21,264 nucleotides of DNA. It comes from a virus. The DNA lies in UHGV virus genome UHGV-0381259; one strand, 5' to 3'. The position numbers and the translations under genes are program-made. Under the pieces are notes generated by a model. It was not told the DNA's origin. It did not search any database and saw only the letters and a list, made by a program, of their open reading frames with translations. Shown piece after piece: positions 1 through 18,393 of this stretch (position 1 is the first letter of the stretch; the number at the start of each line of letters is the position of its first letter).

Positions 1-2
1 AT

Positions 3-179
3 TTTTTGGAGTCTTTGAAGCTCCAGCGCATTGATTTTTTTCTTAAGCTTGTAGCGGCTAGTGAGTGTAGTGATGAAGAGAAGGGGCTGGCTCTGCAGTG
101 GGTTTCTGAATTGACTGATGAACTCATGGCAAAAATCAGAAGCCACGAATACAACCGCTCAATGGATGTCATCAGCTGA
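3..179 (+). CDS. 3' end of an upstream CDS of unknown function (partial, open at the window edge)
   Basis: Frame 3 is open from the window edge to TGA at 177-179 (...ELTDELMAKIRSHEYNRSMDVIS*); no start in window; product not recognised. Confidence 0.25.
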   Translation, partial: FLESLKLQRIDFFLKLVAASECSDEEKGLALQWVSELTDELMAKIRSHEYNRSMDVIS

Positions 180-189
180 GGTGACTTTT

Positions 190-423
190 ATGCGCATTGA
201 AATAATGATCGATAAAGAGCAGAAGATTAGCCAGTCTACCCTGGACGCCCTTAAATCCGAGCTTTACCGCAATCTGCGCCCCCTGTATCCCAAAACGGTA
301 ATCCGTATCCGTAAAGGTAGCTCTAACGGTGTGGAACTGACCGGACTGCAACTGGACGAAGAAAGAAAACAAGTGATGAAAATTATGCAGAAGGTGTGGG
401 AAGACGACAGCTGGCTGCATTAA
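190..423 (+). CDS. DinI-like small protein (DNA-damage-inducible protein I family)
   Basis: 77-aa product MRIEIMIDKEQ...LYRNLRPLYPKTVIRIRKG...VMKIMQKVWEDDSWLH resembles DinI in length and in the conserved N-terminal MRIE and C-terminal W-x-D-W motifs; GAGGTG RBS 5 nt upstream of ATG 190. The track ORF from 118 is an N-terminal over-extension. Confidence 0.75.
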   Translation: MRIEIMIDKEQKISQSTLDALKSELYRNLRPLYPKTVIRIRKGSSNGVELTGLQLDEERKQVMKIMQKVWEDDSWLH

Positions 424-557
424 GAAACGTTGCTGGCGTCTGAACTTGCTTCTGGCGTCAGCAAGGTTGAACAACGAGCTGTGCGAGGCGTTAGCTCTGT
501 GGTGCATGTCTATACCGCATGAGATCGCATGATCGTTTGAGGATCGTTTTTGCTAAG

Positions 558-581
558 GCCCGCCAGAACTGGCGGGCTTTT
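558..581 (+). terminator. Rho-independent terminator-like hairpin
   Basis: GCCCGCC-agaact-GGCGGGC stem-loop followed directly by TTTT, downstream of the DinI-like gene. Confidence 0.5.
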
Positions 582-626
582 GCGTAGATCATGCAGGTGC
601 ATGAAAACCACTACATAAAGCGGGCA

Positions 627-645
627 GGCGTGGCGGGGATACGAG
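627..645. other. Candidate cos (cohesive-end) sequence of the P2-like phage
   Basis: GGCGTGGCGGGGATACGAG resembles, from memory, the 19-nt cohesive ends of P2/186 (GGCG[A/T]GGCGGGGAAAGCA-); sits in a non-coding gap. Recalled consensus, not verified. Confidence 0.25.
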
Positions 646-715
646 CGCGCGCAAATATGGAAATTAGCTGCGTTTTGTTATATATAGGAGAGATATTAAA
701 AGGGTAGGCACCACT

Positions 716-1240
716 ATGACTGTTTTACACCTTGTAGCAGACCACCTTGTTAAGCAGGCTAATACAACCCATAGAAAGGGGGAGGTGCACGCAATATTAG
801 CAGATGCATATGGTCGTTCTGCTTTTAATCGGTATTATTATGCTTGTTTTCTTAACGTCCGTGAGTTTGTTTCAACTATTGATTCCAATTGGGGCAAGGT
901 CAAGCATGCAGATGTTCCAAAATTATTACGTGATAGTGTAAGTAGAAAGATAGAAGTTGAGCTCCAAAAATCAGAAAAAATTGGCGATATAACTTTATGT
1001 GAATATAAATCTAAAAAGAGCTTAATACGTACTTCACTGAACAATATGGCTTCAACTATGGCATTGGCATATACAATTAGGGGAGTTGTTGATTATGAGC
1101 CGGAAATTGAGATGATATTCTGTAATGGCAGTTTTTCGATTAATAAAACATCAGTGGCTTCGGCTAAGGGGTGGCTACAAACCATTAATTCAGAAAGATC
1201 GAAGGTTACCAGAATTATGAAGGAGATTGGCTTTGTCTAA
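716..1240 (+). CDS. Hypothetical protein, 174 aa, first gene of AT-rich cargo cassette
   Basis: Clean ATG ORF with purine-rich RBS (AAAGGGTAGG) upstream; AT-rich codon usage unlike the phage late genes; no recognisable catalytic motif. Confidence 0.6.
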   Translation: MTVLHLVADHLVKQANTTHRKGEVHAILADAYGRSAFNRYYYACFLNVREFVSTIDSNWGKVKHADVPKLLRDSVSRKIEVELQKSEKIGDITLCEYKSKKSLIRTSLNNMASTMALAYTIRGVVDYEPEIEMIFCNGSFSINKTSVASAKGWLQTINSERSKVTRIMKEIGFV

Positions 1241-1970
1241 CCAGAAAATATTATCAGAATTGTTGGTAAAATTCCCGTTCATAAAAGTTAAAGATGTAAC
1301 AGATTTTATGGATACAATTCTGTTGATCATCCCAATTAACAAAATAGTACCATTGTCTGCTTCGAATAGTATAACAAAACGCCAGATATCTTTATTGGTG
1401 AAACGAATAACAGAAAAGCTAAATGTAAGAGTGTTGATTAGTTACTCACCATTTTCAGATAAAGACAATATTGAAGCGGCTTTAGTGGCGTTAGCGAGAA
1501 GTAATTTTAAAAAAGGGAAGATATCTGATTTGAATTTATCTTTCTTTGATTCGCAAAACGCAGTGCTTTATGTCTTTTGTAAAAACCTTACATTATCAGA
1601 ACGCGAGAAGTGGGAGTCGTTAGTTGTAGGGATATTAAACGGTTTTAATATAAAAGTGACTTCATTTGTATATGAGGCTAAAAATAATCCTGAACCTACA
1701 ATGATGGTTATTTTAAGAGCGGCAAAAAAATGTCAGCCCTTTGATCTTCCAAGATTGTTCAGTCAACTTGATAATGGCGATTATCATATTGAATCACTTG
1801 ATTGGCTGAATGGGAAGCTAGACAACTTACGTAAGAAAGGATTTTTATTAAGAAGCCATGACGGAACTTATAGAATGACATTGTCAGGGTTAGAAATAGT
1901 TCCAGTGACTAAATCTAGGCAAAGTTCTGATATAGAGAGGGTCCTTTATCTTGCACGCAAACATCTATAG
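1227..1970 (+). CDS. Hypothetical protein, about 247 aa, second gene of cargo cassette (start uncertain)
   Basis: ORF overlaps the stop of the previous gene, suggesting translational coupling; track start is TTG at 1227, first in-frame ATG near 1305. Contains VRVLISYSPFSDKD and LTLSEREKWESL motifs (see findings). Confidence 0.55.
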   Translation: MALSNQKILSELLVKFPFIKVKDVTDFMDTILLIIPINKIVPLSASNSITKRQISLLVKRITEKLNVRVLISYSPFSDKDNIEAALVALARSNFKKGKISDLNLSFFDSQNAVLYVFCKNLTLSEREKWESLVVGILNGFNIKVTSFVYEAKNNPEPTMMVILRAAKKCQPFDLPRLFSQLDNGDYHIESLDWLNGKLDNLRKKGFLLRSHDGTYRMTLSGLEIVPVTKSRQSSDIERVLYLARKHL

Positions 1971-2046
1971 TGGTATATTCGCGTTGGTAGTGGCGTTCAC
2001 GAGAGTATGCATCATGCTCATTTGTGAAGGTCGCGGACAGAATGTG

Positions 2047-2097
2047 CGCCTGCGAATCAGCAGTCGTTCCTTCGAAACGTCTGCTGATTCGCAGGCG
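2047..2097 (+). ncRNA. Candidate structured RNA element: perfect 17-bp inverted repeat hairpin upstream of the RT (possible retron msd-like stem)
   Basis: CGCCTGCGAATCAGCAG (2047-2063) pairs perfectly with CTGCTGATTCGCAGGCG (2081-2097); 17-nt loop; no U-tract after the stem; 45 bp upstream of the RT start codon. Confidence 0.3.
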
Positions 2098-2141
2098 TCA
2101 TCAACGAAAGTTTTCATCAGCTTTGCTTAAGGATTGACCTT

Positions 2142-3119
2142 ATGAAAACGCCACTACCCTTATTTTTCACATTCACTGATGCCGAACAGTTTCTTAAGGC
2201 GTTGAGCACACCGCTGAGAGATAGATATTCTGCGGAACTTATTCGACTACAAGGCCTCAGGCTTCCCCCATTAGTTTCTTGGAGTATCTTGTCTGTTGCC
2301 ATTGGCGTAAGCCCACAATTTATTACTTCGTTAATTAAGAATAAGTCAAAATACTATCGTGTTTTTTCTATTTCCAAAGGAAGAGGAAAGAAAAAAAGAA
2401 TTATTGAAGCACCCAAGGTTAGTATAAAAATCATTCAGTCTTGGGTCGCTCATCATTTAAGCATTAATCATAGTCTTGGCATAAGTGAAAATGCATATGC
2501 TTTTATCCCAGGTAAGAATGGGATATATGAAGCTGCAAGTAAACATTGTGGTGCAAAATGGATCCTGTCTATTGATTTAAGAGATTTTTTCCATACGATC
2601 ACTTCAGATATAGTGATTTCAACATTAGTTGAAATCGGATATAGAGCCGATCAGGCTGCTAAATTGAGTGAATTACTTACCTTGAATCAGAGACTTCCGC
2701 AAGGTGCGCCAAGTAGCCCTGTTATCTCAAATTTAGTATTTAGGTCAACTGACTTAAAGATTAATGAGTTGATTTCTAATACGGGTATTAAATATACTAG
2801 ATATGCTGATGATTTGACCTTCTCCGGTGATGATGAAACATTTGATATCGAGGAACTTAAAGATAATGTTGTAGAGTTGTTACTATCTGATAATTGGGTT
2901 GTGGCTGAGGAAAAACTCAGAATAGCTAGGATTCCTAATAGATTAAAAGTACATGGTTTTCTAGTTCATGAAAATAAACCTAGATTGACTAAAGGCTATC
3001 GAAATAAAATTAGAGCATATAAACATTTATTGAGGACTGGGAAAATAGTTGAGAAGGATTTTGATAAAATTAAAGGGCATGTTAACTATAGTGAATATAT
3101 TGATAGATTGAATGAGTAA
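2142..3119 (+). CDS. Reverse transcriptase, retron-type (325 aa, RT core only)
   Basis: RT motifs in the ORF: ILSIDLRDFFHTI, LPQGAPSSPVISNLVF, YTRYADDLTFSG (YADD catalytic box), KVHGFLV; size and motif spacing match compact retron RTs such as Ec86 (from memory). AAGGA RBS 8 nt upstream. Confidence 0.9.
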   Translation: MKTPLPLFFTFTDAEQFLKALSTPLRDRYSAELIRLQGLRLPPLVSWSILSVAIGVSPQFITSLIKNKSKYYRVFSISKGRGKKKRIIEAPKVSIKIIQSWVAHHLSINHSLGISENAYAFIPGKNGIYEAASKHCGAKWILSIDLRDFFHTITSDIVISTLVEIGYRADQAAKLSELLTLNQRLPQGAPSSPVISNLVFRSTDLKINELISNTGIKYTRYADDLTFSGDDETFDIEELKDNVVELLLSDNWVVAEEKLRIARIPNRLKVHGFLVHENKPRLTKGYRNKIRAYKHLLRTGKIVEKDFDKIKGHVNYSEYIDRLNE

Positions 3120-3139
3120 GGGCCTAGCCCTTACTCATT
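3111..3139. terminator. Palindromic hairpin between the convergent RT and Q genes (putative bidirectional terminator)
   Basis: AATGAGTAAGGGC-cta-GCCCTTACTCATT, a perfect 13-bp inverted repeat; the RT stop (3117-3119) and Q stop (3139-3141, minus) both lie in or at the stem. Confidence 0.45.
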
Positions 3140-4170
3140 TAATTTAATGTGTATATTCCAAAGGATATGATTTTATCTCCTATCCAGTTATTTAACTCTT
3201 CTAGTCTTCTCTGTAATGGTATTAACTCATTCCTCACAAAAACAAGGCTTGCCTTCTCCACATCCCCAAAACCCCCAACATTATTAGGCATTATCCCCAT
3301 CATTTGTGGGGGTACACGATGCGCCGCCATCATGTCGTCCCGGCTTACGTTCTTGATGTTCAGAAACTCATCCTTCGCCGCGACTTCTGATAACGGGATA
3401 ATCTGAAGTCCGTCCTTTTTGCCGTTAGGAGAGTACATAAACAGATTGCGGAAGTTACCTGGTCCTTTGGCGCTTTTCATTGCATTGCGGAGGTTGTTCA
3501 CATCCTCCTGGTTTTGTGCGGCGTCGGTCATGTACATGATGAAGCCTGCATGACTGCCGTTGATGTAATACTTCCGGCGGAACAGCGTGGCGGACTCGTT
3601 GAGCAGGGCTGACGGAATGGCAGAAAGATAACCGGGCAGGCCGTAGATCTCCTGGTTGATGTCCGGTTCCATCAGATGAAAAATGCTGCCTTTCGTGAAC
3701 TGATACGGCTGGGTTGTCATACCGTATTGCACAAACCAGTAGGTATCCAGGTCTAACCCGCGTCGGGTGTATTTTGCCAGAGCAGGCTCAAGGGCGATAA
3801 CTTCACCAAACCGGTTCGTGCGTTTCTCCAGGTAGGCGTTACCAAATACCAGATAGTCCTGCACAAAACGTGAAAAAGCCTGTTGGCTGAGCAGCGGGTG
3901 AGGGATGTAGGTGCTGGTCAGAATGTTGCATTTCACCGCAATCGGTGAGCTGTGATGCACGGCGGCGCGGAAGGTTCGCGCCAGTCCGTCAAAGCTGACG
4001 GGAGGCTCATACCAGCGATCTGTCTGTACGCATTCCACATAGTCCAGCAGTTCGCGGCGGTCAAGTACTGGAATGGGATCACCGAAGCTGAAAGCCTCAG
4101 CCGTTGGAGCGTTGCCTGGTTTTGTGTTGTGATCAACCTTTACCAGTTTGATGTTTTTATGTTTGCTCAT
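3139..4170 (-). CDS. Q: Portal vertex protein Q (P2 gpQ family)
   Basis: 343-aa product with strong similarity to P2 gpQ as recalled (PVLDRR..LDYVEC...WYEPPVSF...RAAVHHSSPI...FVRNELIPLQ); correct size and position next to the terminase gene. Confidence 0.93.
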   Translation of the reverse strand: MSKHKNIKLVKVDHNTKPGNAPTAEAFSFGDPIPVLDRRELLDYVECVQTDRWYEPPVSFDGLARTFRAAVHHSSPIAVKCNILTSTYIPHPLLSQQAFSRFVQDYLVFGNAYLEKRTNRFGEVIALEPALAKYTRRGLDLDTYWFVQYGMTTQPYQFTKGSIFHLMEPDINQEIYGLPGYLSAIPSALLNESATLFRRKYYINGSHAGFIMYMTDAAQNQEDVNNLRNAMKSAKGPGNFRNLFMYSPNGKKDGLQIIPLSEVAAKDEFLNIKNVSRDDMMAAHRVPPQMMGIMPNNVGGFGDVEKASLVFVRNELIPLQRRLEELNNWIGDKIISFGIYTLN

Positions 4171-4874
4171 TCTGCCAGCTCCTCGTTAGCAAGAGGCCAT
4201 TCGCACATAAACAGCATTCCCCAGTCCTCTGCTGATAATTCTTTTTTCATATCATTCAGCCAGTTATCAGTAAACAACATTGCTCCTGATGCTACTGCAT
4301 CATCAGCGGTGAATACCATGCGGGTTACACTGTTGTTTCTGCTTAGCTTTTTATATTCCTGCCATGCCTCCGGGTTAGGGCTGGGAGTGGTGTAGTAGGT
4401 GGCGTGGTGGTGTGCGTGCAAGGACATTCCTTTGGCGAGAGTAATCATATTTCTCGGTGATTCAGCCCAGGCATACTCTGACACGTAGACATTTCCACTG
4501 AGTGCGGCGGCGTGGCACTTGAGGTCGATAAAATAAATGACCGCACCATTGGGAAACTCCAGATATGTTTTGCCAGATTTTATTTTTCCAGTGCGCGTAT
4601 AAGCTGCGGTCTGGCTTAAAAATGCTGACACATAGGCTTTGACTGCCTGCGCTGATGCGGTGCTGCAGCAGAGGAAAATCTGGTTACGCCCGGTATGCAG
4701 TGCATCGATCAGGGCCTCATAGGCAAAAAAGAAATCCGCTCCTGCCTGGCGCATTTTTGTGAGTAAACGGTTTCTACTCTTTGGGCCAGTGTTCCACTCA
4801 TACTGGTAATCAAAGAAAGTGCTATCCACCGGAAGTCCCGCGATAGTCATGAGGTTAGTTGGGATTGGGGGCAT
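4167..4874 (-). CDS. Terminase-ATPase-domain paralog (truncated gpP-like protein, about 235 aa)
   Basis: Product aligns to the N-terminal ATPase region of the adjacent gpP (FFFAYEALIDALHTGRNQIFL vs FYFAHEALIDALLTGRNQIFL; FPNGAVIYF vs LPNGATLYF; SGNVYVSEYAWA vs HGNLYLDEYFWI; LFMCEW vs LLMCEF) but has no nuclease half. Its start overlaps the P stop (TGATG) and its stop overlaps the Q start (ATGA). Confidence 0.6.
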   Translation of the reverse strand: MPPIPTNLMTIAGLPVDSTFFDYQYEWNTGPKSRNRLLTKMRQAGADFFFAYEALIDALHTGRNQIFLCCSTASAQAVKAYVSAFLSQTAAYTRTGKIKSGKTYLEFPNGAVIYFIDLKCHAAALSGNVYVSEYAWAESPRNMITLAKGMSLHAHHHATYYTTPSPNPEAWQEYKKLSRNNSVTRMVFTADDAVASGAMLFTDNWLNDMKKELSAEDWGMLFMCEWPLANEELAE

Positions 4875-6640
4875 CAAAAAATCTCCACAATATTGCTGGT
4901 ATTGGCGGACTCGCCCTGCAGCGGTTCGTTAAACAGTGCGTGCATTGTTGCCCAGGCCAGATCGGCATGGCTGGCTTCTTCGCTGCGGCTGGCTTCATAG
5001 GTCGGGCGGTTGCCGCTGGCGGTGGTGGCGCGACGGATTGCCATAAATGACTGCGCAATGTCGGTGTGCCCGGCGTCAAACTCCAGACGGCGGTGGCTGA
5101 TAATGTCGTAGGCCTTGAGTACCAGGGCGTTTTTAACGTTGGGGTTGTAGACAAACTCCCGGACGGCAGGAAAGAACGCTTTCACGTTCTCGTAAACTCC
5201 GTGACCGACACCTGTCGAGTCGATACCGATATAGGTCACGTTGTACTGTTCGGTCAGTTTTTTGATGGCGTCAGCCTGGGCGCGGAAGTCCATCCCGCGC
5301 CACTGGTGACGCTCAAGAATGCGAAACTTACCGCCTGGCACGGCTGGCGGTGCCACCACCACGCATCCGGCGCTGTCGCCGTTCTGCGTACCTTTTGCCG
5401 GGTCATAACCGATCCACACTTCTCGCCAGCCAAACGGGCGCAGGGCCAGTGCATGAAAGTCGGTCCAGACTTCCCAACTGTCCACCATGCATGCCTGCAG
5501 CTCGCTGAGCGGAAATACGGACGCGAGATCGTCCACGAATTCACACATCAGCAGGTTCTGGTATTCGTCCGGGCTGTATTCCATGCGCAACTGGTCAAGG
5601 TCGAACAGGTTACAGCCGCCGCGCACCGCATCTTCCACGGTGACTATCTGGCGGTATTGCCCGTCTGCACACAGCAGGCCTGGAGCCAGATTGCTGTGGG
5701 ACAGGTCGATGTCCACCTTGTCGGCTTTATTGCGCCCACGGTTGAATAGCGCACCGGACCAGAACGGATAAGCACTGTGTGTCAGGCTGGATGGCGTGGA
5801 AAAATAGGTTTGTCGCCATTTTTTGTGAATAGCCATACCGGAAGCCACTTTGCGCAGCTCCTGGAATTTCGGTATCCAGAAATATTCATCCAGATACAGG
5901 TTTCCGTGGTAACTCTGGGCCGTGCGGGCATTGGTGCCGAGGAAATACAGTGTGGCCCCGTTGGGAAGCACCATCGGATCGCCTTTCAGCTCCACTTCCA
6001 CTTCTTTGGCGAAGTCGATGATGTACTGCTTAAAGACGTGGGCCTGTGCCTTGCTGGCGGAAAGGAAAATCTGGTTACGTCCGGTAAGCAGAGCGTCAAT
6101 CAGGGCTTCATGGGCAAAGTAAAAGGTCGCGCCGATCTGGCGTGACTTCAGCAGGTTGCGGATGCGGTTGGTTTTTCCGGCTTCCCACCAGTGGCGCTGG
6201 TAGTTGAACATGGAGGAATGGAAGATTTCTTCCAGCTTCTCAATCTGCTCATCGGTGAAAACATTCTTTTCCGGCTGACGGCGCGGGCCTTTGTTGCGGT
6301 TGGCGACGTTAGGGTTTAAGTCGACTTCGTTGCCGCCATTGTTAAACTTGCCGATCCGCGCGTGGCGTTCCGACTGGCGCGCCAGCAGGTCAATCTCTTT
6401 GAAATCTTTCCCTTCTTTGTGCTCCTTCATAATGAGCTGGCAGTAGCGTGCGGCGGTGGTGAGCTGCATCTGATCCAGCGGCCCATAGTCACCCCACTTG
6501 TCGCGTTTCTTCCAGCTGTGAACGGTTGCAACTTTCTCGCCCAGCATTTCAGCAATGCGGGCTACACGGTATCCCTGAAAGTACAGCAGCATGGCCTGCC
6601 GACGGGGATCGAGATCTGCGGGTGTCAGTGTGGTGTTCAT
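4874..6640 (-). CDS. P: Terminase large (ATPase) subunit P (P2 gpP family)
   Basis: 588-aa product matching P2 gpP in length and sequence character; divergent from the O gene across the late promoter region. Confidence 0.93.
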   Translation of the reverse strand: MNTTLTPADLDPRRQAMLLYFQGYRVARIAEMLGEKVATVHSWKKRDKWGDYGPLDQMQLTTAARYCQLIMKEHKEGKDFKEIDLLARQSERHARIGKFNNGGNEVDLNPNVANRNKGPRRQPEKNVFTDEQIEKLEEIFHSSMFNYQRHWWEAGKTNRIRNLLKSRQIGATFYFAHEALIDALLTGRNQIFLSASKAQAHVFKQYIIDFAKEVEVELKGDPMVLPNGATLYFLGTNARTAQSYHGNLYLDEYFWIPKFQELRKVASGMAIHKKWRQTYFSTPSSLTHSAYPFWSGALFNRGRNKADKVDIDLSHSNLAPGLLCADGQYRQIVTVEDAVRGGCNLFDLDQLRMEYSPDEYQNLLMCEFVDDLASVFPLSELQACMVDSWEVWTDFHALALRPFGWREVWIGYDPAKGTQNGDSAGCVVVAPPAVPGGKFRILERHQWRGMDFRAQADAIKKLTEQYNVTYIGIDSTGVGHGVYENVKAFFPAVREFVYNPNVKNALVLKAYDIISHRRLEFDAGHTDIAQSFMAIRRATTASGNRPTYEASRSEEASHADLAWATMHALFNEPLQGESANTSNIVEIF

Positions 6641-8693: not shown

Positions 8694-9344
8694 ATGAGCC
8701 TGAGTCCCGCACGGCAGCATCGCCTGCGCGTTCAGGCTGAACAGGCCGCCCGTGAGGGTGGCAGTGTTCGCCACGCGTCGGGCTATGACCTGATGCTGCT
8801 GCAACTGGCAGAAGACCGCCGCCGTCTCAAGGGCGTTCAGTCCACGGTGAAAAAAGCGGAAATCAAGGTGGAGCTGCTGCCGAAATATGCCGCCTGGGCG
8901 GAGGGCGTCCTGGCTGCCGGAGGCGCTCAACAGGATGACGTGCTGATGTACGTGATGCTGTGGCGCATTGATGCCGGAGATTATGCCGGGGCGCTGGAGA
9001 TCGGGCGTCATGCCCTGCGTCATGGCTGGGTGATGCCGCTGGGTAACCGCAACGTGCAGACCGTGCTGGCAGAGGAAATGGCAGACGCCGCGCAGAGCGC
9101 AATACTTGCCGCCACCGGCTTTGATGCCGATCTGTTGTTGCAGACGCTGGAGCTGACAGACGGTCTGGATATGCCGGACCAGTCACGGGCGCGTCTGCAT
9201 AAAGCGATTGGCGCTGTCCTGAGTGAAAGCAATCCGGCTTCCGCCCTTAATCATCTCAACCATGCGTTACAGCTCGATCCCCGCTGTGGCGTGAAAAAAG
9301 ACAAACAGCAGCTGGAGCGCAGACTGCGCAATGACAGCCGCTGA
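8694..9344 (+). CDS. M: Terminase small (endonuclease) subunit M (gpM family)
   Basis: 216-aa product similar to P2 gpM (LRHA..Y..ML..LA.D.R.LK...ELLP...GAQDD.LM.VMLWR.D.GD.AGALEI); immediately follows N. Confidence 0.88.
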   Translation: MSLSPARQHRLRVQAEQAAREGGSVRHASGYDLMLLQLAEDRRRLKGVQSTVKKAEIKVELLPKYAAWAEGVLAAGGAQQDDVLMYVMLWRIDAGDYAGALEIGRHALRHGWVMPLGNRNVQTVLAEEMADAAQSAILAATGFDADLLLQTLELTDGLDMPDQSRARLHKAIGAVLSESNPASALNHLNHALQLDPRCGVKKDKQQLERRLRNDSR

Positions 9345-15085: not shown

Positions 15086-16473
15086 GCACAAAATTTTATA
15101 CCCTGCTGACGGATATTGGCGCGGCGAAACTTGCCAGCGCCGCCGCGCTCGGTGTGCCGCTAAAAATTACCCATATGGCGGTGGGCGATGGCGGTGGAGT
15201 ATTGCCAACGCCGGACGCAAAGCAGACGGCACTGGTAAATGAGAAACGCCGGGCTGCGCTGAATATGCTTTATATCGACCCGCAGAACAGCAGCCAGATT
15301 ATTGCCGAACAGGTGATCCCTGAAAACGAGGGCGGTTGGTGGATACGTGAAGTGGGCTTGTTTGATGAGTCCGGGGCATTGATTGCCGTGGGCAACTGCC
15401 CGGAAAGCTATAAGCCGCAACTGGCTGAAGGTAGCGGGCGCACTCAGACCGTGCGCATGGTGCTGATTACCAGCAGCACGGACAATATCACCCTGAAAAT
15501 CGACCCTGCTGTAGTGCTGGCAACCCGCAAGTATGTGGATGACAAGGCACTGGAGCTGAAGGTGTACGCGGATGATCAGATGGCAAAACATCTTGCCGCA
15601 CCGGACCCGCATTCACAGTACGCGCCAAAAGCCAGCCCGACATTTACCGGAACCCCCAAAGCGCCGACGCCAGCGGCGGGGAATAATACCACGCAACTTG
15701 CGACCACCGCGTTTGTTCAGGCGGCACTGACAGCCCTGATTAATGGTGCGCCAGCCACGCTGGACACGCTGAAAGAAATAGCCGCAGCCATTAACAATGA
15801 TCCGAATTTCAGTACCACCATTAACAATGCGCTGGCACTAAAAGCACCGTTGTCGAGTCCGGCACTCACCGGAACGCCAACAGCCCCCACGGCGGCGCAG
15901 TCGGTCAACAATACACAGATTGCCACTACGGCTTTTGTGAAATCGGCGATTGCAGGAATGGTGGGTTCTGCACCTGCTGCACTGGATACACTGAACGAAC
16001 TGGCGGCGGCACTGGGGAATGATCCGAACTTTGCCACGACAATGCTTAATGCGCTGGCAGGTAAACAACCGCTGGACAATACGCTTACCAATTTGAGTGG
16101 GAAGGATGTTGCCGGTCTTCTTGCATACCTTCAATTGGGAGAAGCGGCGAAACGGGATGTTGGCTCAGGGGCGGGACAAGTTCCTGATATGAGTAGTTTT
16201 CAGTCAGGTGGCGGGTGGTTTAAGTTGCCGAGTGGATATGTTATTCAGGCTTTCGAGGCGTCTTTTGATTCTAACGGGCTATATATCAATTTCCCTATAC
16301 CATTTCCGAGTAGCGTTATTGCTATTGTGCCAGGCGTTTTAATGTCAACGACTGCCTCTCCATCACAACAATTTCCATCAATACAATGTGACGTCAATGA
16401 TCTGACCCGTTTTTTTGCTAAATACAATATGGGTGGAATGAATGCTTCATATTTTATTGCTATAGGAAAATAA
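15082..16473 (+). CDS. H: Tail fibre protein H (constant N-terminal part plus a C-terminal variable tip encoded inside the invertible segment)
   Basis: N-terminus MSTKFYTLLTDIGAAKLASAAALGVPLKITHMAVGDGGG is the conserved P2 H / Mu S type; the C-terminal ~110 aa after LGEAAKR lie past the left crossover site and have a diverged homolog on the opposite strand at 17332-17682. Confidence 0.9.
   Translation: MSTKFYTLLTDIGAAKLASAAALGVPLKITHMAVGDGGGVLPTPDAKQTALVNEKRRAALNMLYIDPQNSSQIIAEQVIPENEGGWWIREVGLFDESGALIAVGNCPESYKPQLAEGSGRTQTVRMVLITSSTDNITLKIDPAVVLATRKYVDDKALELKVYADDQMAKHLAAPDPHSQYAPKASPTFTGTPKAPTPAAGNNTTQLATTAFVQAALTALINGAPATLDTLKEIAAAINNDPNFSTTINNALALKAPLSSPALTGTPTAPTAAQSVNNTQIATTAFVKSAIAGMVGSAPAALDTLNELAAALGNDPNFATTMLNALAGKQPLDNTLTNLSGKDVAGLLAYLQLGEAAKRDVGSGAGQVPDMSSFQSGGGWFKLPSGYVIQAFEASFDSNGLYINFPIPFPSSVIAIVPGVLMSTTASPSQQFPSIQCDVNDLTRFFAKYNMGGMNASYFIAIGK
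15634..16074 (+). repeat. Intragenic tandem duplication (two ~74-codon units) within tail fibre gene H
   Basis: Consecutive protein units ...TGTPKAPTPAAGNNTTQLATTAFVQAALTALINGAPATLDTLKEIAAAINNDPNFSTTINNALALKAPL and ...TGTPTAPTAAQSVNNTQIATTAFVKSAIAGMVGSAPAALDTLNELAAALGNDPNFATTMLNALAGKQPL. Confidence 0.7.
16118..16143. other. Candidate left crossover site (hix/gix-like) of the invertible segment
   Basis: TTCTTGCATACC-TT-CAATTGGGAGAA; outer half-site resembles the recalled hix/gix consensus TTCTTGAAAACC; inner half-site TTGGGAGAA is the inverted copy of the inner half of the right site. Confidence 0.45.
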
Positions 16474-16475
16474 CC

Positions 16476-16898
16476 ATGTATTTATTTTCGCCAAGCACAT
16501 TGGGTTTTTATCCCATCGAGATGAAAGAAGAATACCTTACCAATGGTTCATTACCATCTGATGTTATAGAGGTTTCTGATAGCGTCAGAAATGAATATAA
16601 CTTTGCGCCACCTGAAGGCAAACAGCTAAGTTCCAGCCAAAATATGCCAGTCTGGATTGATATTCCACCGGCGACACGTGAAGAGTTGATTGCTGCTGCC
16701 GAAAAAGAACGCCAGAAACTACTGGCCCATGCTGACGCTGTTATGCTGGACTGGCGAACTGAACTGATGCTGGGTGAAATCAGCGACGCCAACAAAGCTA
16801 AGCTGTCGGCGTGGCTGGCCTATAAAAATGAAGTTAAGTCGGCTGATGTGACAACTGACCCGGAGCGTGTTAACTGGCCTGTTCCCCCGGAGGCGTAG
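16476..16898 (+). CDS. G: Tail fibre assembly chaperone G (Tfa family), currently expressed orientation
   Basis: 140-aa product with the conserved Tfa C-terminal pattern (IAAAEKERQKLL...W.PVPPEA); directly follows H. Confidence 0.85.
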   Translation: MYLFSPSTLGFYPIEMKEEYLTNGSLPSDVIEVSDSVRNEYNFAPPEGKQLSSSQNMPVWIDIPPATREELIAAAEKERQKLLAHADAVMLDWRTELMLGEISDANKAKLSAWLAYKNEVKSADVTTDPERVNWPVPPEA

Positions 16899-17310
16899 GC
16901 CATTCAATATCTGGCGCACCGGAAGTATCGACCAGTTCCAGTGCGTCCAGATAATCCAGCCACAAATTATATTGCGCCAGTTCCTCACCTTTCAGACGAC
17001 CAATAGCCGCTTTACCAGGCCATTGTTTACTGTTCATATAATCGTTGGCCTGATTAATCAGTTGCTGCTTTTCAAGTTCGGCTGCAGCAATCTGTTCCTC
17101 ATGTGTTGGTGGTGGAATTTCAGTCCATGCAGGAAAACTATTTTCTCCAGCGATACGGATTTTTCCTTTCGGCGGTAATCCGGAAAACTCAATATACACT
17201 TGCTCATCAACTTCAACAGCATCATCTGGCCATGAGTCAGCTTGAGTGTAATCCTCTTTCATCTCCAGCGGATAGAAAGAGTTTGTAGTCGCGGAATATA
17301 TGTAATTCAT
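16870..17310 (-). CDS. Alternative tail fibre assembly chaperone G' (Tfa family), silent orientation
   Basis: 146-aa minus-strand product homologous to G (FYPLEMKEDY...IAAAELEKQQL...WPTPPGE); its 3' end overlaps the 3' end of G by about 29 bp. Confidence 0.8.
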   Translation of the reverse strand: MNYIYSATTNSFYPLEMKEDYTQADSWPDDAVEVDEQVYIEFSGLPPKGKIRIAGENSFPAWTEIPPPTHEEQIAAAELEKQQLINQANDYMNSKQWPGKAAIGRLKGEELAQYNLWLDYLDALELVDTSGAPDIEWPTPPGEQAS

Positions 17311-17331
17311 TTTTCACTCCATATAGCTAAA

Positions 17332-17682
17332 TTAACAGCCTAACGCTAAAAATGAAGCGCCGAGGCCAGGAGTACTGGCTCTGGATATAAATTTAACCGG
17401 GTCGGGACTAAAACCTGCACAGGCAATATAACCAACAGCCCCGCTATCTGGTGTGTAGTCTTGTGAGACCAAAACACGCAGACATCTGTTTGGAAATGCA
17501 ATCGGGAAATGGGTTACTACATCCTGTGCAATGCCTGGTGCGCCGATTGAGCCCCACTGAAGAATAAAACCTGATGGAAATTTTTGATATCCAGTACCTG
17601 AAACAGAAAGCGTGAAGCTACCCATATCAGGTATCTGATTCGCCCCTGTCCCTACATTCCTTTTAGCCGCTTCTCCCAAACC
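17332..17682 (-). CDS. Alternative tail-fibre C-terminal tip Hv' (no own start; fused to H constant part after inversion)
   Basis: Minus-strand frame encodes ...[22 protein letters not shown]...FPSGFILQ...FPIAFP..., parallel to the H tip (LGEAAKRDVGSGAGQVPDMSSF...LPSGYVIQ...FPIPFP); the track ORF extension to 17781 is outside the segment and not a real N-terminus. Confidence 0.7.
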
Positions 17683-17696
17683 AACGTTTAAGAAAA
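17671..17696. other. Candidate right crossover site (hix/gix-like) of the invertible segment
   Basis: TTCTCCCAAACC-AA-CGTTTAAGAAAA closely resembles the recalled Hin/Gin site consensus TTCTTGAAAACC-AA-GGTTTTTGATAA. Confidence 0.5.
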
Positions 17697-17750
17697 TGTA
17701 GTTTTCCCCCCTAGCTGGCATCATTTGGGCTTTTGCATGAGGGAAAACAA

Positions 17751-18329
17751 ATGCAGGTTGGCTATGTGCGCGTATCAACAAATGAACAAAATACCGCGCT
17801 ACAGCGTGACGCGCTGGAACGGTCGGGATGTGAGCTAATTTTCGAGGATAAAATCAGCGGTAAATCGACAAACAGGCCAAGGTTAAATCGCGCACTCAGG
17901 CAACTTAATGCCGGTGATACTCTCGTTGTCTGGAAGCTCGACAGGCTCGGGCGTAGCATGCGCCATCTTGTCTCTATGACTGAAGAGCTTCGCCAGCGAG
18001 GGGTTAATTTCAGAAGCCTGACCGACAGTATTGATACCTCAACCCCGATGGGGCGATTTTTCTTTCACATCATGGGCGCTCTTGCAGAAATGGAACGCGA
18101 GTTAATCGTCGAACGAACCCGCGCCGGGCTGGATGCAGCCCGGGCACAAGGCAGGATCGGAGGTCGTAGGCCGAAGCTGACGCCTGATGAATGGGCTCAG
18201 GCTGGCCGGTTGATTGCGGCCGGAGAATCCCGACAGCGTGTTGCACTGATTTTTGATGTGGGCATATCGACGCTGTATAAAAAATTTCCGGCGACAAATC
18301 CCGTTGTGTCAGCCACCGGCGAACCCTGA
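17751..18329 (+). CDS. Serine recombinase, DNA invertase of the Gin/Hin/Pin/Cin family
   Basis: N-terminus [22 protein letters not shown] with the catalytic Ser context (YVRVST); resolvase catalytic domain plus C-terminal HTH ([22 protein letters not shown]); about 192 aa; adjacent to the right crossover site. Confidence 0.9.
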
Positions 18330-18393
18330 CAAATAGCCGCATACAGGCGTAAACCAGACAATATCACTCACCTCAACTAACGGAGTTAAACGG

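Follow-up and report, generated by a model that had tools for sequence, protein, structure and literature searches.

A probable P2/186-family cos site next to a type IX retron cassette in an apparently complete Escherichia coli prophage

Packaging ends and cargo slots of P2-like phages

Coliphages P2 and 186 and the satellite P4 have 19-nt 5' cohesive ends and a conserved cos core of ~55 bp, a description that goes back to Ziermann and Calendar (1990) as cited in PMC3931495 and PMC5694545. The cohesive ends are annotated as positions 1-19 of the sequence records, reading GGCGAGGCGGGGAAAGCAC in P2 and GGCGTGGCGGGGAAAGCAT in 186 and PSP3. In other relatives the site was placed by different means; the cos sites of Smp131 and SEN1/4/5 were assigned by analogy, and that of Salmonella phage SEN8, a phage propagated from one plaque and CsCl-purified, was assigned during annotation and not by end mapping (PMC5427200).

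The DNA beside cos is also known as a location for accessory genes. Retrons Ec67 and Ec86 are described as taking the place of ~180 bp that separate cos from the terminator of a packaging gene in a 186-like prophage (Dodd and Egan 1996, Virology 219:115, as summarised in PMC6868368), and the interval between cosL and gpQ has been proposed as a hotspot (PMC5694545). Rousset et al. (2022; PMC9122126) described a P2-like defence hotspot adjoining cos, between gpA and gpQ, with 1,650 gene arrangements in E. coli that include retrons, and a 2026 follow-up (PMC13586616) confirms this cos-adjacent gpA-gpQ hotspot. One class of retron, type IX, was described by Mestre et al. (2020; PMC7736814) as comprising, in order, genes for a HEPN-like protein and a winged-helix/HTH (wHTH) protein that overlap by 8 bp, an ncRNA and a clade-7 reverse transcriptase (RT). 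In P4, the variable genes gop, beta and cII begin just after the left cohesive end. The cos-to-portal cargo slot of P2-like phages is credited to Dodd and Egan (1996), Nakayama (1999) and Rousset et al. (2022).

Here, we analysed the virus genome UHGV-0381259 (a stretch of 21,264 nucleotides, hereafter the window), in which a cos-like 19-mer had been predicted from the sequence alone. Comparison with the systems above indicates that an E. coli prophage of the P2/186 family, apparently complete, very probably has its cos site at positions 502-652, that this site would be cut by the phage terminase and that the cos-to-portal slot is occupied by a predicted type IX retron.

The prophage and its packaging genes

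The window carries gpA, a DinI-like gene, the cos region, the cargo and then Q and P on the minus strand, in that order, which puts cos between the replication/accessory region and a portal-terminase operon read divergently, and Pfam searches identified P2-type terminase and portal genes together with genes for a GPO scaffold and a P2-family capsid. The genes that bear on packaging are as follows.

3139..4170, minus strand: portal protein, homologue of P2 gpQ and 186 W (Pfam Phage_portal; RefSeq annotation)
4874..6640, minus strand: terminase ATPase/large subunit, homologue of P2 gpP (Terminase_5, Terminase_6N and Terminase_6C; PF06056, PF03237 and PF17289)
8694..9344, plus strand: terminase small/endonuclease subunit, homologue of P2 gpM (Pfam Phage_term_smal, PF05944, E = 2e-40)

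Both subunits of a cognate P2-type terminase (gpM and gpP) are present, and the large subunit is 99% identical to gpP of SEN8 and 63% identical to gpP of P2. By sequence, the prophage is a Fels-2/SEN8-like member of the P2/186 family. The genome of E. coli MFDS1016424 is 100% identical to the window across 560-3200, and the element in that genome extends from the integrase gene to ogr beside ssrA, spans ~34.5 kb and holds a full P2-type gene set. The genes from int to ogr are complete and of ordinary lengths, and the size of the element falls within the family range of 30.6-35.2 kb.

Two further features of the prophage were observed. An extra ORF of 236 aa (4167-4877, minus strand), annotated as a 'terminase large subunit domain-containing protein', lies between the portal and terminase ATPase genes; it has a counterpart in 186 and PSP3 and is absent in P2, SEN8 and vB_EcoM-813R9, where the portal and ATPase genes abut. 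At ~16470-18340, tail-fibre assembly genes in opposite orientations lie beside a serine-recombinase gene (ORF 17733-18329), a layout that looks like an invertible host-range segment. The coordinates around this segment are ~11 bp off those of MFDS1016424, so the window derives from a slightly different copy of the prophage.

The 19-mer and the conserved cos region

The features of the putative cos region, all given for the plus strand, are listed below.

502..626, plus strand: conserved left flank of cos, corresponding to the right end of the mature chromosome (conservation profile, alignments and TGCAT offsets)
556..583, plus strand: G+C-rich, terminator-like hairpin GGCCCGCCAGAACTGGCGGGCTTTTG followed by TTTT (fold; aligns with the 186/PSP3 hairpins)
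627..645, plus strand: cosN homologue, the 19-nt cohesive-end sequence GGCGTGGCGGGGATACGAG (identical to SEN8 1-19; cos features of P2/186/PSP3; ends of records)
646..652, plus strand: CGCGCGC, the sole conserved right flank of cos (six-way alignment)

The 19-mer lies at 627-645 of the plus strand in a non-coding gap, as the original prediction had claimed; the gap runs from the end of the DinI-like gene (423) to the start of the first cargo ORF (716). When up to three mismatches are allowed, the window holds no other match (0.01 expected from shuffles). The first 13 bases of the 19-mer, GGCGWGGCGGGGA, have a single exact copy in the window and none in 100 shuffles. They have a single exact copy also in the entire 45-kb prophage region of MFDS1016424, where the other hits carry two mismatches and appear at the chance rate. 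A true cos elsewhere in the prophage would have told against the prediction; we searched for one and found no second candidate in that 45-kb region.

The 19-mer is G+C-rich and homologous to the family form GGCG(A/T)GGCGGGGAAAGCA(C/T), with 15 of 19 positions identical to 186/PSP3 and 14 of 19 to P2, such that the overhang differs from the known ones at 4 (186) or 5 (P2) positions. The P2 and 186 cohesive ends had been given correctly in the prediction, being those annotated in the P2, 186 and PSP3 records. The first 13 positions are identical in 186, as it states, and so are positions 15 and 18; the differences lie at 14, 16, 17 and 19. The closest described sequence is that of SEN8; the 26-mer at 627-652 is the same as the first 26 bases of this phage, whose positions 1-19 are annotated as a 'putative cos site'. 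A full-text literature search for the exact 19-mer string returned the SEN8 genome announcement only, and no published end determination for the variant ending in ATACGAG was found in the literature for any phage.

For a six-way alignment of the window with P2, P4, 186, PSP3 and SEN8, the right and left ends of each element were joined and anchored on the 19-mer. The joined ends of the five reference elements align base for base with 502-652 without gaps; this is the comparison with P2, 186 and their relatives by which the prediction was to be judged, and it came out in its favour. Two blocks directly left of the cut, TGCAT.AAAACC and AAG.GGGC, are invariant and of fixed spacing in the six elements, as are the overhang pattern GGCG.GGCGGGGA.A..A. 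and the GCGCGC directly right of the 19-mer, beyond which nothing is common to the six sequences. TGCAT/GCATG motifs are kept at offsets of ~-124/-111/-101/-29 in all six; in the window, GCATG copies lie at 504, 517, 527 and 599 (4 in 131 bp, where 0.15 would be expected), and the block GTGCATGAAAACC...AAAGCGGGCA of the left flank lies directly before the predicted nick. The cos sites of P2, 186 and P4 thus resemble that of the window in the position and spacing of the 19-mer, the invariant blocks and the TGCAT offsets, and also in the opposite-strand portal and terminase genes to the right. In all, the 19-mer is flanked by ~125 bp homologous to five cos regions that were defined experimentally or historically, and the left flank is ~91% identical to that of SEN8. 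The ends of database records agree with this layout, as the last base of the linear PSP3, SEN1, SEN8 and EtG records aligns with 626 and the first base of the Smp131 record with 627.

IMG/VR was then scanned with the 26-mer at 627-652, which yielded at least 120 viral-contig loci. In the 112 unique segments among the matches listed, the window base is carried by 80-100% at most positions of 502-626, and conservation is at background left of 502 and from 653 onwards. Positions 627-652 are fixed by the 26-mer anchor and the sharp right boundary in this profile is therefore partly forced by the search; hence, the boundary was checked independently in the six-way alignment and in the end points of BLAST matches in phage records, which fall at 652-654. 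On these comparisons, the cos region is ~502-652, nearly all of it on the side of the mature right end, with CGCGCGC alone on the portal side.

A hairpin at 556-583, GGCCCGCCAGAACTGGCGGGC followed by TTTT, sits inside the conserved cos flank. It folds at -23.4 kcal/mol (z = -5.0), and its core, CGCCAG..CTGGCG, is kept in 186 and PSP3 and not in P2. This hairpin is likely the terminator of the DinI-like transcription unit, and it may serve a dual role as terminator and part of cos. The same region is overlain by a RefSeq/PGAP pseudogene, 'hypothetical protein, internal stop', at 519-707 of the window (NZ_CP106924.1, 1145588-1145776), and hypothetical proteins are called across the cos region in several phage records as well. 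The pseudogene most probably reflects a spurious ORF called on cos DNA that is non-coding.

Poor inducibility is common in P2-like prophages. Taken with the pseudogene annotated across the cos region, this could mean that the cos homologue is a relic of a prophage that is defective or never packaged, and that, in this strain, nothing physical corresponds to the cassette's place at the left end of the virion DNA. We regard this as unlikely, however, since the genes from int to ogr form a complete set and are of ordinary length, the ~34.5 kb of the element are within the size range of the family, the cos core is identical to that of the plaque-forming phage SEN8, the two gpP proteins share 99% identity, and the pseudogene is most simply explained as a miscalled ORF. 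Less probable still is a real cos with cut positions or an overhang length other than those of P2/186, which would shift the cassette by a few bases towards or away from the physical end. The 3' third of the 19-mer has diverged, and with four of the last six overhang positions (14, 16, 17 and 19) unlike those of 186, the exact nick positions could in principle differ; nevertheless, the invariant flanks ...GGGC[A/G] and GCGCGC stand at exactly equal spacing in the six elements, which argues for the same cutting geometry. A chance G+C-rich string, with the true packaging site elsewhere in the prophage, is barely conceivable even though identity to 186 is limited to the first 13 bases plus two more, as it is effectively refuted by the 100 shuffles without an exact match and the ~125 bp of flanking homology, and is further opposed by the missing second candidate and by the linkage to a portal gene in 87 of 87 loci among the matches listed.

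With 502-652 read as the cos site, the terminase (gpM, 8694-9344, and gpP, 4874-6640) would recognise the flank left of the 19-mer, by homology with P2, 186 and P4. This presumed recognition region, 502-626, holds the repeated GCATG motif as well as the TGCATGAAAACC...AAGCGGGCA block. The nicks would be staggered by 19 bp, the top strand being cut 5' of G627 and the bottom strand between 645 and 646, and the packaged linear DNA would begin with the 19-nt 5' overhang GGCGTGGCGGGGATACGAG and end at 626. We infer both cleavage and the exact nick positions by homology. The literature searched on P2 yielded no usable information on the direction of packaging or on which end enters the host first, and no claim on direction is made here.

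The retron cassette and the cos-to-portal slot

The cargo that follows the putative cos site comprises the features listed below.

653..715, plus strand: leader of the cargo cassette (similarity to other cargo types stops at 653)
716..1240, plus strand: HEPN-like protein of a type IX retron, 174 aa (PADLOC HEPN_IX, E = 1.4e-52)
1227..1970, plus strand: winged-helix/HTH protein of a type IX retron, overlapping the HEPN gene (PADLOC HTH_IX, E = 1.5e-61)
1986..2158, plus strand: predicted retron ncRNA, msr-msd (inverted repeats, fold, conservation with a second copy of the cassette)
2142..3119, plus strand: retron reverse transcriptase, 325 aa (Pfam RVT_1, E = 5e-23; PADLOC RT_IX, E = 4e-129)
about 3104..3146, strand not assigned: perfect 20-bp hairpin between the converging RT and portal genes (z = -9.3 on the plus strand, -5.9 on the minus strand)

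Its predicted components, HEPN, wHTH, msr-msd and RT, identify the cargo as a type IX retron. The gene order fits the published description of this type, as does the overlap between the HEPN and wHTH genes, which is 8 bp with the RefSeq start of the latter at 1233. The HEPN-like protein (716-1240) had no Pfam hit. Perfect 12-nt a1/a2 inverted repeats (1986-1997 and 2147-2158) enclose a 22-bp msd hairpin (2047-2097), and the ncRNA region folds at -82.1 kcal/mol with z = -8.3, as expected for an msr-msd. A permissive-threshold Rfam search of 1-4300 returned no retron family, only sub-threshold hairpin hits (MIR405, RsaD and a CRISPR repeat). The hairpin at about 3104-3146 is likely a bidirectional terminator that stands in place of tQ/tW of P2/186.

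Of 5,426 complete E. coli genomes, 1,277 match the query 560-3200, nearly all of them at its cos-proximal start only, and the retron cargo of the window is present in only 3. Carriers of the prophage include E. coli MFDS1016424, NH-21 and PSJ-12. A copy of the cassette that is 80% identical and free of indels was found in another phage contig (L075), in the same slot and with the same boundaries, which indicates that the arrangement persists through divergence. The ncRNA region is the best conserved part of the cassette between the two (96%). They also have the leader stretch TTTGTTATATATAGGAG in common, and its conservation in L075 makes it a possible extended -10 promoter. A consensus promoter/terminator scan of 400-3300 gave no sigma-70-like site in 653-715 and counts not above those of shuffles.

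The retrons Ec67 (Eco2) and Ec86 (Eco1), as they are summarised in later literature, resemble the window in having a retron in place of the short DNA between cos and the portal terminator. Relative to these summaries, the window differs in the type of its retron, type IX with HEPN and wHTH partners, and in its backbone, which is Fels-2/SEN8-like and not that of 186 itself. SEN8 (Felsduovirus) likewise carries cargo between cos and portal, in addition to the shared 26-mer, left flank and large terminase; however, its cargo is different (a hypothetical protein and an HNH endonuclease, 2.2 kb), and its host is Salmonella salamae.

The portal stop is at 187 in P2 and 196 in 186, leaving 167-176 bp between the 19-mer and the portal gene, compared to 2,493 bp (646-3138) in the window, a slot of 2.5 kb where P2/186 have ~150-180 bp. 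The remark in the original prediction that P2 has almost no spacing at this position is therefore correct. Given that 627-645 is a cosN homologue, the retron cassette (653-3138) would lie between cosN and the portal gene and come first after the left cohesive end; the prediction had likewise placed the RT cassette between cos and Q at the extreme left end of the packaged genome, and the sequence supports it, with cosN assigned by homology.

Among the matches listed, 87 loci extend far enough to judge, and every one of them has a portal gene downstream on the opposite strand. The distance from cos to portal is 172-204 bp in 12 of these, which are 'empty' as in P2/186, and 573-3550 bp in the 75 that are filled, and the contents of the slot fall into 51 sequence clusters. 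Foreign DNA thus replaces the short cos-portal spacer, with contents that differ between related phages. Except in L075, similarity to the window is lost within a few bases past 652 in every cargo type among the matches listed. On the other side of cos, gpA lies upstream in 85 loci among the matches listed, at a distance of 247-4116 bp. Both the gpA-cos and the cos-gpQ distances are variable, and the conserved cos core is accordingly an island between two variable slots. The left slot of the window is occupied by no more than a small ORF and the DinI-like gene (118/190-423).

The constraint to the right of the cut extends over only 7 bp, so that variation is unconstrained from 653 up to the end of the portal gene; the stretch from 653 to the portal terminator could be replaced without harm to packaging or to the late operon. 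This pattern would explain why the slot serves for cargo. The 3' end of the portal gene (3139-3250) is 31% G+C, like the cargo, compared to 50-55% in the backbone, and DNA similarity to other P2-like portal genes begins anywhere between 3141 and 3251 in BLAST comparisons, with the C-terminus of the protein conserved in protein alignment. An ungapped profile drawn from the portal stop had suggested no conservation in the gene's 3' end, which BLAST and the protein alignment showed to be partly an alignment artefact. The low G+C content and the variable start of similarity suggest crossovers inside the portal gene, with its 3' end travelling with the cassette. Turnover of cassettes by recombination between the cos core and the portal gene would be consistent with the sharp left boundary, the G+C content of the portal 3' end and the variable start of similarity.

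Rousset et al. (2022) and the 2026 follow-up treat gpA-gpQ as one hotspot, whereas the present loci show two slots, of 247-4116 bp from gpA to cos and 172-3550 bp from cos to gpQ among the matches listed, around a cos island of ~150 bp. It is conceivable, although we hold it only tentatively and think it rather doubtful, that the hotspot consists of two cassette slots around this island, of which the right one is exchanged as a unit. A left crossover restricted to the cos core would account for the divergence of every cargo type at exactly 653; the right crossover would fall in the final ~10-110 bp of the portal gene.

The cos variant, the cos-to-portal slot and the retron type have all been described already and, in view of the earlier descriptions (Dodd and Egan 1996; Rousset et al. 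2022), the finding is a correct reading of a known arrangement that leaves the understanding of the P2/186 family unchanged. Its value lies in the anatomy of this prophage, with a packaging site at 502-652, a virion chromosome that would start at 627 and a type IX retron as accessory cargo. This helps annotation, as RefSeq has placed a probably spurious pseudogene over cos, and it helps to predict what is packaged and spread along with the phage. For P2-like prophages, it also helps to locate defence cargo; the DNA to take would be that between the GCGCGC after cosN and the portal stop. With the cassette at the extreme end of the virion DNA, the timing of its entry or expression in a new host might also be affected.
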